A DNA stretch of 64,000 nt, taken from contig CAXTCF010000004.1 of assembly GCA_964242945.1 (NCBI GenBank), positions 1,045 to 65,044 on the forward strand. Direction: 5' to 3'. Positions 29,644 to 43,067 of this stretch are shown here, in pieces (position 1 is the first letter of the stretch; every line of letters begins with the position of its first letter). Under the pieces are notes generated by a model. The model was not told the origin of the DNA. It saw only the letters and a list, made by a program, of their open reading frames with translations, and searched no databases. The position numbers and the translations under genes are program-made. This stretch comes from an uncultured Rhizobiaceae bacterium (GTDB taxonomy: Bacteria > Pseudomonadota > Alphaproteobacteria > Rhizobiales > Rhizobiaceae).

Positions 29644-32397
29644 ATGCCGGGGGAACACCCGTCGGGCGCTGGGCAGCTTGTGCTCAGCGGACGCTTGGAC
29701 TTTGTAAGAGACCATTTCATAACTCGGAGGTGGAGGACCGACGAGGGATTTTTGGACCTTCGCAAGGCGCCGAGCGCAGTCGATGCCGGCAGCATCGGCG
29801 AGCATCGGCAACGCAGCGAGGGCCGAAAAGAGCCGTTGGGCCGACCCGGCCGAGTTATGAAATGGGCTCTAAGTTTTCAGGGAAAGCTGGGGGACGGTCT
29901 GCACACGGTGCGGCGGGGCGCGCGGGGCCGGCTGGCGCGGTTCGCTAGCGTTCTCGGCGGCGTTACGATGCTGACGCCGGTCGCAAGCGCGCAGGAGCCT
30001 GGGGGCGCCAGCATCGTCGGGCTCCGCGCACCGGAGATGATCCAGATCGCCATCTTCGCCGGCGCCATGGGGGCGGCGCTTATCTTCGCGCTGTGGATGA
30101 TCCGCGAGCGCGGCCAGATCGCGCGGGAAAACGCCGACCTGCGCGACCGCGTGGCCGACCTGAACGCTGCGCTGTCGCGCAGCGACGCCCTGCTCAACCT
30201 GCGCGACCAGCGCGTGATCGTCTGGAGCAGCGGCAACCAGAAGCCTGAACTGGTGGGTTCGCTCCCGGTGGAAAGCGGCGCGCCGGAGGACCGTGCGGCC
30301 TTCCTGGCGCCCGGCCGCTGGCTCAAGCCCCGCTCCGCGGCGCTCCTCGACAATGCCGTGGCGGCACTGCGCGAGGACGCGCAGAGTTTCGACCTCATCG
30401 CGGAAAGCCAGAACAACACGCTGTTCGAGGTGCAGGGCCGCCGCAACGCCGCGCACGCGCTGGTCCGCTTTACGGCACTCGGCGAGGTGCAGCGGAACGA
30501 GGCGCGGCTGCGTTTGGAAAACGGTCGCATCCTTTCGGACCTGAACTGCGTGCTCGACATGCTCAACGCGCTCGACATGCCGGCCTGGCTGCGCGACGAA
30601 AACGGGGGTCTGCGCTGGGTCAACAAGGCTTTTGCGCGCGCGGTTGAGGCGCCGAGCCCCCAGGTGACGGTGGAAGGGGGCAGGGAGTTCCTGAGCACCG
30701 CCACGCGCGAGGCGATCGCCCGCGAGCACGCGGGCCGGCCGGTTTTCGCGCAGAAGGTCTCCACCGTGGTGGAAGGCGACCGCCGCCAGTTCACCGTCAC
30801 CGACGTGGTCGGGTCGCGCGGCTCGGCCGGCATCGCCGCCGACGAAAGCGCCACCGAAGCCATCCGCGAGCAGTACGAGAAGGCGGTACGCTCCCACGCC
30901 GATACGCTCGACCAGCTGGCCACTGCCGTCGCGATCTTCGACAAGGACACCAAGCTTCGCTTCTTCAACCAGGCTTTCGTCAAGCTCTGGGACCTCGACC
31001 TTCCCTTCCTGCACAGCGCGCCCGACAACGCCCTCCTGCTCGACCGGCTGCGCGCGCAAGGCAAGATCGCGGAACAGCCGGAATGGCGGCGCTGGAAGGA
31101 GAACCTGCTGGAAGCCTACCGCGCGGTGGAAAGCCAGGAACAATGGTGGCACCTGCCGGACGGGCGCACGCTGCGGGTGATCGCCAACCCGCAGCCGGCA
31201 GGCGGCGTCACCTGGGTGTTCGAGAACGTCACGGAGCAGATGGACCTGGAAAGCCGCTACCAGACGGCGGTGCGCGTGCAGACGGAAACGCTGGACGGCC
31301 TCAACGAAGGCGTCGCCGTGTTCGGCCCGGACGGGCGCGCAAAGCTGTTCAACCCGGCCTTCGGCGCGATGTGGAGCTTAAGCCCCGGCGCGCTTGCGGC
31401 GGGCACCCACATCGCCACCCTGAAGAGCCACAGCGACCGCCTCGTGGCAGGCGGCGCGGAGAAGAGCCCCTGGGCCGGCTTTGTCGCCTCCGTGACCGGC
31501 TTCGACGAGGCCCGGCGCGACCGCAGCGGTGAATGCGAACTCTCCAACGGCACGATCCTGCGCTACGCCGTGATCCATCTGCCCAACGGGCAGGTGATGA
31601 TGACCTTCGTGGACGTCACCGACACCGTGCGGGTGAAGCGGGCGCTGACCGAAAAGAACGAGGCGCTGGAGCGCGCCGACCGGCTCAAGAACGACTTCGT
31701 GCAGCACGTCTCCTATGAACTGCGCTCGCCGCTGACCAACATCATCGGCTTCACCGAGTTGCTGACCCTGCCGGGCGCGGAACCGCTTGGCCCCCAGCAG
31801 CGCGAATATGTCGGGCATATCGGCTCGTCGTCGGCCGTGCTGCTCACCATCATCAACGACATCCTCGACCTCGCCACGATCGACGCGGGCATCATGGAGC
31901 TGGATATCGCGCCCGTCTCGGTGGACGCCACGATCGGGGCCGCGGCCGAGCTTCTGACTGAGCGCCTGGCCGAGAACGGCATCACGCTGAAGGTGGACGC
32001 AGAGGCCGCGCCGCAAAGTTTCGCGGGCGACGAGACGCGGGTGCGCCAGATCCTCTACAACCTTTTGTCCAACGCCGTGAACTACGCGCCGGAAGCCTCG
32101 ACCGTGACGCTTTCCTGCCGCGCCCTGCCGCACGGCGTGGAGTTCGCCGTCCACGACGACGGGCCGGGCATGGCGCCCGATGTGCTGGACACGGTGTTCC
32201 GCCGCTTCGAGCCGCGCTCCAACGGCGGGCGCCGCCGCGGGGCGGGCTTAGGCCTTTCCGTGGTGAAGAGTTTCGTCGAACTGCACGGCGGCACCGTGCG
32301 CATCGAGACCGGCGAGGCCAAGGGCACCACGGTGACCTGTTTTTTCCCTGGGCCGGCCACGCCCTGGCCGGCCAGTTCGCGCGACTTCGCGGGATGA
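29644..32397 (+). CDS. PAS-domain sensor histidine kinase (DivL/BdfA-like), apparently carrying a 55-aa MITE-derived insertion
   Basis: PAS-like repeats, HVSYELRSPLTNIIG, GAGLGLS; conserved position before tsaE. GAGGG lies 9 nt before ATG 29644. The true start may be further downstream. Confidence 0.85.
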   Translation: MPGEHPSGAGQLVLSGRLDFVRDHFITRRWRTDEGFLDLRKAPSAVDAGSIGEHRQRSEGRKEPLGRPGRVMKWALSFQGKLGDGLHTVRRGARGRLARFASVLGGVTMLTPVASAQEPGGASIVGLRAPEMIQIAIFAGAMGAALIFALWMIRERGQIARENADLRDRVADLNAALSRSDALLNLRDQRVIVWSSGNQKPELVGSLPVESGAPEDRAAFLAPGRWLKPRSAALLDNAVAALREDAQSFDLIAESQNNTLFEVQGRRNAAHALVRFTALGEVQRNEARLRLENGRILSDLNCVLDMLNALDMPAWLRDENGGLRWVNKAFARAVEAPSPQVTVEGGREFLSTATREAIAREHAGRPVFAQKVSTVVEGDRRQFTVTDVVGSRGSAGIAADESATEAIREQYEKAVRSHADTLDQLATAVAIFDKDTKLRFFNQAFVKLWDLDLPFLHSAPDNALLLDRLRAQGKIAEQPEWRRWKENLLEAYRAVESQEQWWHLPDGRTLRVIANPQPAGGVTWVFENVTEQMDLESRYQTAVRVQTETLDGLNEGVAVFGPDGRAKLFNPAFGAMWSLSPGALAAGTHIATLKSHSDRLVAGGAEKSPWAGFVASVTGFDEARRDRSGECELSNGTILRYAVIHLPNGQVMMTFVDVTDTVRVKRALTEKNEALERADRLKNDFVQHVSYELRSPLTNIIGFTELLTLPGAEPLGPQQREYVGHIGSSSAVLLTIINDILDLATIDAGIMELDIAPVSVDATIGAAAELLTERLAENGITLKVDAEAAPQSFAGDETRVRQILYNLLSNAVNYAPEASTVTLSCRALPHGVEFAVHDDGPGMAPDVLDTVFRRFEPRSNGGRRRGAGLGLSVVKSFVELHGGTVRIETGEAKGTTVTCFFPGPATPWPASSRDFAG
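29708..29869. mobile_element. 162-bp MITE with 20-bp terminal inverted repeats and TAA target-site duplication
   Basis: GAGACCATTTCATAACTCGG (29708-29727) and CCGAGTTATGAAATGGGCTC (29850-29869) match 19/20; TAA at 29705-29707 and 29870-29872. Confidence 0.88.
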
Positions 32398-37871: not shown

Positions 37872-38123
37872 GCTGGAACACCCCTCACTGTCCTGCCGGA
37901 CCCCGGCCCTCCGCATGGCTCCGGGCGTTCATCGCTCACAGAGCCATCTCAATGGCTCTGTGTCTGCCTGCGGCAGACCGCTCTTCACCCCACAAGGGGA
38001 GAGAGGGGCAGCTTCAACTTTGCCGCTCCTCTGAAGCATCAACGACTGGCGAAAGCGGAGATGAAGGTCCCGCTCTCCCCTTGTGGAAGAGATGTCCGGC
38101 AGGACAGTGAGGGGTGTTCCAGC
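37872..38123. mobile_element. Composite palindromic element, family A, copy 3, with a nested insert
   Basis: 30-bp perfect inverted repeats (37872-37901 and 38094-38123). The spacer shares GGGGCAGCTTCA and TGGCGAAAGCG with copy 2. About 85 extra bp sit inside the left arm. Confidence 0.88.
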
Positions 38124-41897: not shown

Positions 41898-42218
41898 ATG
41901 GCTACGGTCAAGGTCGACAACAGCAATTTCGAGTCCGACGTGCTTCAGGCCTCCGAGCCTGTGGTGGTGGATTTCTGGGCGGAGTGGTGCGGCCCCTGCA
42001 AGATGATCGGCCCGTCGCTCGAAGAGATTTCCGGCGAGCTTGCCGGCAAGGTGAAGATCGCCAAGCTGAACATCGACGAGAACCCGGAGATCGCCGCCCA
42101 GTTCGGCGTGCGCTCCATCCCGACGCTGATGATGTTCAAGGACGGCGCGGTCGCCGACATGAAGGTCGGCGCGCTGCCGAAGACGGCGCTTTCGCACTGG
42201 ATCAAGAACGCGGCCTGA
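41898..42218 (+). CDS. trxA: Thioredoxin
   Basis: [11 protein letters not shown]; start at ATG 41898. Confidence 0.98.
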
Positions 42219-42236
42219 TCGGCTCACGCTCACTTC

Positions 42237-42279
42237 AAGAAAGCAAAAGCCCGGCTTCGAGCCGGGCTTTTGCTTTCTT
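42237..42279. terminator. Bidirectional intrinsic terminator
   Basis: 19-bp perfect stem AAGAAAGCAAAAGCCCGGC, loop TTCGA, GCCGGGCTTTTGCTTTCTT. Confidence 0.88.
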
Positions 42280-42299
42280 GCCATATCGCTCAAGCGTCG

Positions 42300-42442
42300 G
42301 AGGTTGTTTGGAAAGGCGTCAGGGCGCAGCGAGAATGGTGTTTTCGAGAACCGGAGCGCAGCGTACCTTGATGGTACGTGAGCACCGGAAGCGGAGAAAA
42401 CGCCGTTCGCAGCCAGCCCTCACGCAGTTTCCAGACAACCTC
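42300..42442. mobile_element. RPE-like (Rickettsia palindromic element-like) MITE, 143 bp
   Basis: TIRs GAGGTTGTTTGGAAA and TTTCCAGACAACCTC match 14/15; central GCAGCGTAC...GTACGTGAG core as recalled for RPE1. Confidence 0.8.
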
Positions 42443-43067
42443 AGCGCACGATCACCTTGGCGCCTACCTCGGCCCGGTCGTAGAGGTCGATGATGTCCTG
42501 GTTCATCAGGCGGATGCAGCCGGAGGACATCGCCTTGCCGATCGATGCCCATTCCGGCGTGCCGTGCAGGCGGTAGCCGGTGTCGCCGCGGCCGTTGTGC
42601 AGGTAAAGGGCGCGTGCGCCCAGCGCGTTGCCGGGGCCGGGCGGCTGCCCGTCGGCAAAGCGGGCGGCGCGGGGGTCGCGGGCGATCATCTCCTTGGGCG
42701 GCGTCCAGACCGGCCACGCCTTCTTGGCCGCCACGCGCGCCTCGCCCGACCATTCGAAGCCGGCGCGCCCGACGCCGATGCCGTAGCGCACCGCCTTGCC
42801 GCCCGGCAGCACGAAGTAAAGGAACTTCTTGCCGGTCTCGACGACGATGGTGCCGGGCGCTTCGCCCGACTCGTAGTTCACGACCTGGCGCTGGTACTTG
42901 CGGTCCACCTTGTAGATGGGAATCGCGGGAAGCTGATACCCCGCGTCCCGCCGCGCGCCATAGTCGTTCGTGAACATCGACGAAGCGCCGCCGAGCACCG
43001 AGCAGCCGCTCGCAAGCGCCGCGAGCCCCAGCGCAACGCCCAAGGCCAGAAATTTAGAACGGACCAA
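42441..43067 (-). CDS. L,D-transpeptidase (YkuD) lipoprotein
   Basis: TTG start with a GGGGAC RBS; lipobox LASGC; YGIGVGR, LGARAL, RLHGT, SSGCIRL. Confidence 0.92.
   Translation of the reverse strand: MVRSKFLALGVALGLAALASGCSVLGGASSMFTNDYGARRDAGYQLPAIPIYKVDRKYQRQVVNYESGEAPGTIVVETGKKFLYFVLPGGKAVRYGIGVGRAGFEWSGEARVAAKKAWPVWTPPKEMIARDPRAARFADGQPPGPGNALGARALYLHNGRGDTGYRLHGTPEWASIGKAMSSGCIRLMNQDIIDLYDRAEVGAKVIVR

Follow-up and report, generated by a model that had tools for sequence, protein, structure and literature searches.

A conserved, covarying core in an alphaproteobacterial MITE-like repeat and its probable counterpart in a second repeat family

The element that we call e1, located in the window (the whole stretch of 64,000 nucleotides of a Rhizobiaceae genome analysed here), is a copy of a MITE-like repeat that extends across the Alphaproteobacteria, is about 142 bp long, has GAG...CTC ends and duplicates a TNA target. 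Elements of this kind are known, and the present one has an unusually well-defined conserved interior. A second element of the window, e2, belongs to another repeat family, and, when all the evidence is taken together, it is reasonably likely that both are MITEs that share a central folded module kept by selection acting on a single strand; to the same extent, e1 and e2 would be non-autonomous mobile repeats that insert at, and duplicate, 5'-TNA-3' and that bear GAG...CTC inverted ends. Compensatory change is found in all the helices that can be tested, and the unpaired letters of the module are conserved class-wide.

The window elements and the mobility of their families

The features of e1 and e2 and of the locus around e1 are collected in Table 1.

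Table 1. Positions of the two elements, of their core parts and of features flanking e1 in the window
Feature	Positions	Strand	Description
e1	42300..42442	+	143 bp, ends GAGGTTGTTTGGAAA...TTTCCAGACAACCTC; full copy of the class-wide hairpin repeat
e1 core, direct repeat unit 1	42345..42361	+	CGAGAACCGGAGCGCAG; includes GAGCGCAG at 42354-42361
e1 inner hairpin, CGTACC-TTGAT-GGTACG	42362..42378	+	closing wobble G42361-T42379; compensatory sequence variation among genomes
e1 core, direct repeat unit 2	42379..42396	+	TGAGCACCGGAAGCGGAG; includes GAGCACCGG at 42380-42388
Thioredoxin gene terminator-like hairpin	42240..42278	+	immediately left of e1, outside the element
TGA stop codon of the L,D-transpeptidase (YkuD) gene	42441..42443	-	TCA on the + strand; overlaps the final 2 nt of e1
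e2	29708..29869	+	162 bp, GAGACCATTTCATAAC...GTTATGAAATGGGCTC; TAA at 29705-29707 and 29870-29872
e2 core	29772..29808	+	GAGCGCAG (29772-29779), TCGATGC-CGGCA-GCATCGG, C, GAGCATCGG (29800-29808)

The e1 element is intergenic, with the thioredoxin gene and its terminator on one side and the convergent YkuD stop codon on the other, and it contains stops in five of the six reading frames. Its + strand, which is the better-folding, or 'top', strand, is predicted to form one end-to-end hairpin (MFE -82.9 kcal/mol, z = -10.2), with terminal inverted repeats of 15 nt that include one mismatch, and within this fold the CCGG of unit 1 (42351-42354) is paired to the CCGG at 42385-42388. The TCA at the YkuD stop is the probable TNA target of e1; its counterpart on the left flank is TCG, so that the duplication of the window copy is not clean.

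Searches with nhmmer and with profiles rendered about seven e1 elements in the 4.25-Mb genome to which the window belongs, one of them divided between two contig ends; the arms of these copies are only loosely similar and their central 45 nt are near-invariant. At the site downstream of YkuD, an e1-type insertion is present in genomes G000 and G002 and the site is empty in congeners G001 and G003, that of G001 consisting of the terminator, about 30 nt and then a TTA stop. The G002 copy at the same YkuD stop has an arm type different from that of the window copy, and the two look like independent or replaced insertions. Evolution of compensatory changes in situ was considered for this pair of copies and rejected, as they represent different old arm types and their left neighbours differ.

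A covariance model of both cores, e1 and e2 together (model R1), had hits in 13 of the 61 relatives searched, some of them from other families of the order, and G023 alone has 49 copies. A scan of one genome per species with the pattern CCGGAGCGSAG-N12-22-TGAGCACCGG identified at least 120 loci. The genera among the matches listed are Mesorhizobium, Phyllobacterium, Brucella/Ochrobactrum, Rhizobium, Agrobacterium, Pleomorphomonas, Bosea, Devosia and Inquilinus, and the matches listed also include sphingomonads, Acetobacteraceae and Caulobacterales; a single Acetobacteraceae chromosome carries at least 150 e1-type copies. Clean copies are about 142 bp in length, with GAG...CTC ends and TCA, TGA or TTA duplications.

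The e2 family is restricted to the lineage of the window genome, in which about 30 copies were found by nhmmer and profile searches. The exact e2-type pattern occurs nine times in this genome, a scan of 400 genomes of the order gave a single real match, and model R1 also detects e2-type copies in congeners and in a few relatives. The window copy is predicted to form one end-to-end hairpin (MFE -89.8 kcal/mol, z = -8.2) and has terminal inverted repeats of 16-20 nt. It lies next to ahcY on one side and to an ORF for a PAS histidine kinase on the other; taken at its longest, the kinase reading frame would extend through e2, which contains no stop in that frame. A search of the congeners for an empty e2 site at the kinase gene gave no match at the DNA level. 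The terminal modules of the family are of at least three kinds (CCCGTTTCATAAT..., GCACATAGCAAAACCCC... and ATGGGGACAATACC...), placed around one centre of about 100 nt.

Both repeats are mobile. The e1-type copies of G023 are flanked by TGA, TTA or TCA, and in a strict test for TNA plus terminal inverted repeats 9 of 117 wide copies passed versus none in the ANT control. Most e2 copies are likewise flanked by duplications (TAA, TTA or TGA), and they start with GAG or GAC. An IS-like repeat that starts with GACCCCGTTTCATAATTG and sits at TAA, TCA or TTA is found at six contig ends, where it breaks the assembly, and this repeat shares with one e2 subfamily the 17-nt end GACCCCGTTTCATAATT. The partner IS of e2 was not found in 12 relatives or in PLSDB, and the 275-contig assembly, which lacks IS interiors, shows no transposase. 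Most likely, e1 and e2 would be mobilised in trans by IS5-type (IS1031-like) transposases. A 3-bp TNA/TWA duplication is characteristic of IS1031-type MITEs of the IS5 family and of the eukaryotic Tourist/PIF-Harbinger MITEs; the elements described here resemble such MITEs in the 3-bp TNA duplication, the GAG... ends, the small size, the many copies and the existence of a candidate partner, an IS-like repeat with the same end.

The core, its compensatory changes and its occurrence in two families

The two cores lie in the window exactly where the original prediction had placed them and with the sequences that it gave, and the predicted folds bear out its description of one same core in both elements, with inner stems that differ, being unrelated in sequence, yet pair, and with outer stems that read CCGG/CCGG in e1 and GCCGA/TCGGC in e2 (29769-29773 paired with 29805-29809). 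The shape predicted for both consists of an outer helix of 4-5 bp, a bulged A, a GC/GC mini-helix, a GCA/GA internal loop and the inner hairpin. In e1 the module is made of two direct repeats of 16-17 nt, GAGMACCGGA(A)GCGSAG, that flank a hairpin of 5-6 bp, and its one-strand fold comprises, in order, the arm helix, a loop of GAGAA versus AAGCGCA, the CCGG helix, bulged A's, the GC-GC pairs, a loop of GSA versus GA and the hairpin. When aligned, the halves are seen to be direct repeats (CGAGAACCGGA-GCGSAG and TGAGCACCGGAAGCGCAG), and therefore the 'internal loops' are the non-self-complementary parts of a direct repeat located inside a palindrome, CCGG and GC pairing because they are self-complementary. 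In Acetobacteraceae copies both repeat units read GAGCACCGGAGCGSAG. Conservation extends to flanks that are independent of the search pattern, CGAGAA being present in 67 of 109 copies and AAGCGCAG, with the extended form AAGCGCAG(AAA), in 61 of 109. A K-turn or hairpin-ribozyme reading of the internal loops was discarded, since the loop letters do not fit the consensus of these motifs and Rfam gave no match.

The search pattern placed no constraint on the inner stem of the e1-type core. Among 109 unique copies, drawn from many genera, 89% have an inner stem of at least 5 bp, versus 33% (maximum 44%) upon shuffling of partners, and at least 15 distinct complementary inner stems were found, including CGTAC/GTACG, CGGAC/GTCCG, CGGCC/GGCCG, TGTAC/GTACA, CGCAC/GTGCG and CGAAC/GTTCG. 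In an alignment of 70 sequences, 91.1% of the cells are paired and the covariation score is 0.340, compared to 0.125 for shuffles (0 of 500 reaching the observed value) and 0.03-0.10 for slid partners. In the same alignment the inner helix has 97.9% of its cells paired, with double-sided changes in five of its six pairs, and in the arm-proximal helix each of the seven pairs shows variation on both sides. The CCGG-CCGG and GC-GC pairs, for their part, follow from the direct repeat and were fixed by the search pattern in e1-type copies, so that these pairs are tested only by the e2 variants. Free variation of the two conserved words among copies had been named in the original prediction as a result that would speak against it; in the e2 family the letters of these words that vary are those of a predicted base pair (GC 11, CG 4, AT 4, AG 4, AC 1), and the outer helix also occurs as GCCAA/TTGGC and GCCGG/CCGGC. 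The core is better conserved than the terminal repeats needed by the transposase, and the arms turn over completely.

Comparison of the two cores suggests that they are quite probably related by common descent, that of e2 being a diverged version of the module. The combination GAGCGCAG-N12-30-GAGCAYCGG occurs eight times in the 4.25-Mb genome, all eight within e1 or e2 copies, and 0.26 occurrences would be expected by chance. A second covariance model, R2, was built from e1-type cores only. With filters off, R2 gave scores of 15.0-22.3 bits to the ten e2 copies tested, every one aligning in register over the full length and on the correct strand; each was the top R2 match of its locus, and seven of the ten were above 16.1 bits, the best non-e1 score genome-wide (21.5 bits correspond to E of about 0.03 genome-wide). 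The similarity is modest, the best e2 copy reaching E of about 0.02 genome-wide, and the e2 copies are not independent tests; a prefiltered search of the whole genome with R2 listed no e2 copies. Since e2 copies score in register and seven of ten exceed the background, the cores are probably related. The covariance model of both cores that the original prediction had proposed, R1, has uncovered further copies in 13 of 61 relatives, and R2, based on e1 alone, places the e2 copies in register.

Some e1-like variants approach e2, the C30 copy carrying the CCGA/TCGG outer helix of e2 and the C48 and C114 e1-type copies reading GGCAAGCGCAG, versus GGCAACGCAG in e2. The ends are also comparable. The GAG start noted for both elements was confirmed, and the contention that their terminal inverted repeats differ has to be revised, as the ends share GAGnnnnTTT (e1 GAGGTTGTTT, e2 GAGACCATTT) and the same TNA target. 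Moreover, the e2 consensus end GAGCCCGTTT is also the end of some e1-type copies in other genomes, and hence the terminal inverted repeats of the two families are related.

It is very improbable that the two cores are unrelated and that their likeness reflects chance or convergence, the centre of any GC-rich palindromic MITE then having a helix-loop-hairpin look. This possibility would agree with the fact that a sequence-only profile of 123 e1-type cores retrieves no e2 copy at E<=100, and with the near limitation of the exact e2-type pattern to this genome; in addition, most of the 3' word of e2, GAGCATCGGC, is a second copy of the 3' strand of the e2 inner stem (GCATCGGC-GA-GCATCGGC), which a local duplication could explain. 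It is, however, difficult to reconcile with the confinement of the word pair to the two families, with the R2 alignments of the tested e2 copies, all of them complete, correctly stranded and scoring higher than nearly all the genome background, with the end consensus and the TNA target common to both families, with the existence of intermediate e1 variants (C30, C48) and with the replication-orientation bias described below, which is the same in both. The superfamily under selection put forward in the original prediction is largely borne out, there being, at the level of the superfamily, a module with compensatory change and retained unpaired letters.

Strand asymmetry, replication orientation and the role of the core

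The two strands of the elements are not equivalent. In 111 of 119 copies the strand that carries GAGCGCAG is the more stably folded one, the mean energy being -95.5 kcal/mol versus -81.9 kcal/mol for its complement, and the arms, which were not constrained by the pattern, contain 565 G-U pairs in the top strand versus 262 in the bottom strand, a ratio of about 2 that holds in both replication orientations. Replication mutational bias was rejected as the source of this G-T excess, which is equal in both orientations, and a C-to-T bias would predict the opposite strand.

The orientation of the elements is also biased. In the 8 kb that flank them, read in the orientation of the top strand, GC skew is negative at 82 of 112 loci; genes on either strand show it to the same degree, so that it behaves like a replication skew, and after correction for gene strand the counts are 77 versus 27 (p = 1.5e-8). 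When orthologous loci were collapsed, the top strand was on the C-rich replication strand in 73 versus 27 clusters (binomial p = 9e-6). The direction is the same for both families in the window genome (22 versus 8 for e2, 5 versus 3 for e1) and on two complete chromosomes of Acetobacteraceae (8 versus 4 on one, 15 versus 5 on the other); in two copy-rich genomes with weak local skew the bias is not significant (21 versus 15 in G023, about 56% in G437). The better-folding strand thus tends to be the leading-strand template, as judged by GC skew. A Chi-like reading of AGCGG/GAAGCGG in the top strand was examined and abandoned, since this strand is mostly the C-rich one (lagging-sequence), the wrong orientation for Chi.

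With regard to the surrounding genes, a crude ORF heuristic indicates that the elements favour convergent gene pairs (45 of 98 assignable loci) and reveals no sense-strand preference in co-directional contexts. This independence of orientation from flanking transcription (16 top-sense versus 23 bottom-sense) runs counter to a role as RNA, and the location of the better-folding strand mostly on the leading-strand template runs counter to a role as ssDNA at the fork.

As to what the core does, we consider it on balance likely that it is a strand-specific single-strand signal, RNA being slightly ahead of ssDNA as the form in which it would act, a mechanism that we infer. Selection on the single-stranded fold of the GAGCGCAG strand would maintain the module as a cis signal for a protein. 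In the RNA version, which we rate slightly above the ssDNA version, the signal would be present in read-through transcripts at gene ends. The orientation bias would come from avoidance of the more stable hairpin on the lagging-strand template. A more far-reaching proposal, which we regard as rather unlikely, is that the core is a class-wide functional nucleic-acid module, its unpaired letters being read by a conserved alphaproteobacterial protein or the module acting by itself, for instance in RNA processing; the carriage of such a module by MITEs with interchangeable ends, non-randomly oriented with respect to replication, forms part of that proposal and shares its low probability. If true, the module would be a domesticated or self-promoting signal of a kind undescribed for CIR/RIME-type repeats. 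A partner protein or a processing activity would explain the persistence of the elements and would supply alphaproteobacterial genetics with a widespread cis-element.

It could also be the case that the module is functionless, the inherited centre of a selfish palindromic MITE, the likeness of e1 to e2 being then ancestry without selection; this we deem unlikely, as we do, jointly with it, the corresponding idea that stem complementarity is kept at the DNA level by palindromic master copies and hairpin-templated (quasipalindrome) correction. Pairing does span the whole element from end to end rather than the core alone, the distribution is patchy, with bursts of 49 and at least 150 copies, insertions are present or absent among congeners, orientation has no link to flanking transcription, and repeats of this sort have been described without known function (PMC2573895). 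However, correction by template switching should remove mismatched loops, and CGAGAA / AAGCGCAG and GSA / GA are unchanged over several orders. The core is, furthermore, more conserved than the terminal repeats that the transposase requires, and the non-equivalence of the strands (in stability in 111 of 119 copies, and in G-U content) and the bias of orientation relative to replication also speak against a functionless centre. Should the module have neither partner nor activity, it would be a clean example of a MITE interior outlasting its ends.

Comparison with known repeats

Rfam gave no match at the gathering threshold across the window, and a search of 42200-42500 at E<=10 touched the neighbouring terminator hairpin only. 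The designation of e1 as RPE-like in the original prediction is not upheld: neither TIGR01045/RPE1 nor any other NCBIfam model matched at E<=10 in six translated frames (three of e1 and three of e2), and the hosts belong to the Rhizobiales, Sphingomonadales, Acetobacteraceae and Caulobacterales, not to Rickettsia. The peptide on which that designation drew does exist, frame +3 reading ...ENRSAAYLDGT*, but a stop follows it at once and it has no match to TIGR01045. Like RPE1, the elements are palindromic, about 100-150 bp long and of alphaproteobacterial origin, and e2 has no stop in the frame of the ORF next to it; they differ from RPE1 in lacking sequence likeness, in host range and, for e1, in the intergenic location with stops in five of six frames.

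The closest known elements, by description, are CIR, RIME and Bru-RS. CIR1-4, the CcrM-associated intergenic repeats of Caulobacter and other Alphaproteobacteria, are credited to Chen & Shapiro 2003 in passages of PMC10969869 and PMC1273637, and CIR have been listed among prokaryotic MITEs. RIME, Sm-repeats, the A/B/C palindromes, CIR and Bru-RS have been presented as long alphaproteobacterial repeats of unknown function with conserved sequence and structure, Bru-RS being palindromes of 103-106 bp that are hot spots for an IS5-family element. The likeness to RIME1/2, Sm-1 to Sm-5 and the A/B/C palindromes of Sinorhizobium/Rhizobium and to Bru-RS1/2 of Brucella, matched by description only, lies in their being dispersed intergenic palindromes of 100-150 bp of Rhizobiales with a mosaic build, and the matches listed for the e1-type core include records of Brucella, Ochrobactrum, Rhizobium and Agrobacterium. 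IS711, in contrast, duplicates TA within YTAR, whereas e1- and e2-type elements duplicate TNA. The RIME, Sm-repeats, CIR and Bru-RS of Rhizobiales and Caulobacter have been catalogued for 30 years and are routinely masked in sRNA screens, with no function assigned to them. The present analysis provides a testable anatomy for one repeat superfamily, consisting of direct words and a covarying hairpin that are found in several orders with different ends, a one-strand fold and an orientation bias. In the literature searched there was no account, for such repeats, of a core that is conserved and asymmetric, of folding specific to one strand or of a biased orientation relative to replication, and the core words were not printed in a relevant context; one word match, which offered a lead to primase ssi sites, turned out to be a cloning primer only and was dismissed.

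CIR carry GANTC in one arm only of an inverted-repeat element. With CIR, compared by description, e1-type copies share an intergenic inverted-repeat layout of more than 100 bp across the Alphaproteobacteria, and the GAGTC that many of them have in one arm, at a fixed offset of -26/-27 in 37 (+14) of 119 left arms, fits that layout; GANTC as a whole was found in 60 left arms versus 9 right arms, and is absent from the e1 sequence of the window. Such sites raise the improbable alternative that the conserved letters are binding sites in duplex DNA, two head-to-tail sites of 16-17 bp about 33 bp apart for a host or transposase protein, the hairpin being incidental, together with the equally improbable corollary that the CcrM site in one arm ties the element to the cell cycle or to methylation, a role that has been proposed for CIR. 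Besides the fixed-offset GAGTC and its one-sided distribution, units 1 and 2 are near-identical direct repeats, and fully so in the Acetobacteraceae, and the bias of orientation relative to replication suits a role at the DNA level. A spacer between two duplex sites, however, need not be a hairpin, and yet pairing of 5-6 bp persists through many sequence changes; the asymmetry of G-T versus A-C indicates one folded strand; the window e1 lacks GANTC; and what is preserved in the outer helix of e2 is complementarity (GCCAA/TTGGC, GCCGG/CCGGC) rather than a direct repeat.

In ordinary MITEs the ends are conserved and the interior drifts, whereas in e1 and e2 conservation is highest in the interior module, which is common to families with different ends. 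The elements also have a likeness, of logic only, to integron attC sites and to IS200/IS605 or REP hairpins, which are folded single-strand recombination sites: the sequence may change but not the structure, the unpaired letters are retained, one strand is not interchangeable with the other, and it matters how the site is oriented relative to replication. The elements described here differ from these systems in having terminal inverted repeats and duplications typical of DDE transposition, with no linked tyrosine recombinase or HUH enzyme, and in that their better-folding strand is mostly on the leading-strand template. REP/BIME elements with RAYT, in particular, are hairpins of 20-40 nt with a conserved 5' tetranucleotide, no target duplication and a Y1 transposase, and the length, the terminal inverted repeats and the TNA duplications of e1 and e2 argue against their being of this type.

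Orientation of the core relative to GC skew

When the local GC skew was determined for the flanks of e1-type copies in other genomes (L031-L150), for the own-genome copies of both the 143-bp hairpin repeat e1 and the 162-bp MITE e2, and for the copies in the complete Acetobacteraceae chromosomes G436 and G438, about 70% of copies were found to have the GAGCGCAG strand of the core on the C-rich strand. Among the de-duplicated e1-type loci, 73 carry the GAGCGCAG strand on the C-rich strand versus 27 in the opposite orientation, and the same preference is seen for the e2 copies of the own genome (22 vs 8) and for those of G438 (15 vs 5). The strand of the genes had no influence on this bias, which is weak or absent in two low-skew, copy-rich genomes.

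Variation in and around the core

In the left arms of the e1-type copies (L031-L150), a CcrM site, GAGTC, lies at a fixed offset of -26/-27 from the core and faces a non-complementary TTGCAG of the right arm, so that GAGTC/TTGCAG forms another conserved asymmetric loop, the second one. The e1 copy of the window has no left-arm GAGTC site.

Among the own-genome e2 copies on contigs C50, C61 and C141, some bear an additional nested hairpin of ~30 nt (GGCCGAAGGCGGGCGAGACCGTCGGCTCGCC), inserted directly 3' of the inner stem, and others have GCATGGCCAAGCATCGGC, in which the inner 5' strand can pair alternatively with the downstream word GCATCGGC.

Reading frame across e2

It is solely the absence of stops from e2 in the kinase frame that places the start of the 917-aa kinase ORF upstream of the element, and the thioredoxin ORF likewise exceeds its domain, by ~70 aa. 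The status of e2 as an in-frame MITE therefore hangs on a predicted start codon.

Window coordinates of the ORFs and of a further palindromic element
Feature	Position	Location
Stretch of the kinase ORF that includes e2	29644-29960	
Thioredoxin ORF	41691	
Composite palindromic element, distinct from e1/e2	37872-38123	between addB and addA

Other repeats

The composite element gave no match to R1, the covariance model of both cores, and lacks the core of e1/e2. In the congener G003 (L278, contig C143), an unrelated element, ~150 nt long and forming a perfect hairpin (GTCACGGCATGGATTCTCGGG...), lies ~80-240 nt from the stop codon of the L,D-transpeptidase gene YkuD, near the site that holds e1 in the own genome.

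Two repeats were observed at contig ends of the own genome. An IS-like repeat, which breaks the assembly at C49, C81, C114, C137, C174 and C265, all outside the window, begins with GACCCCGTTTCATAATTGTCTGGCGATGCG directly 3' of TAA, TCA or TTA; over its first 17 nt it is identical to the termini of one e2 subfamily, and neither its interior nor its transposase is present in the assembly. The second (C77, C81, C108, C139, C176, C182, C193) has the ends (G/C)AGGCTGTGTGGAAACGCG, which agree with the end of the window e1, GAGGTTGTTTGGAAAGGCG, at 16 of 20 positions; this repeat is possibly an IS with a relationship to the ends of e1.
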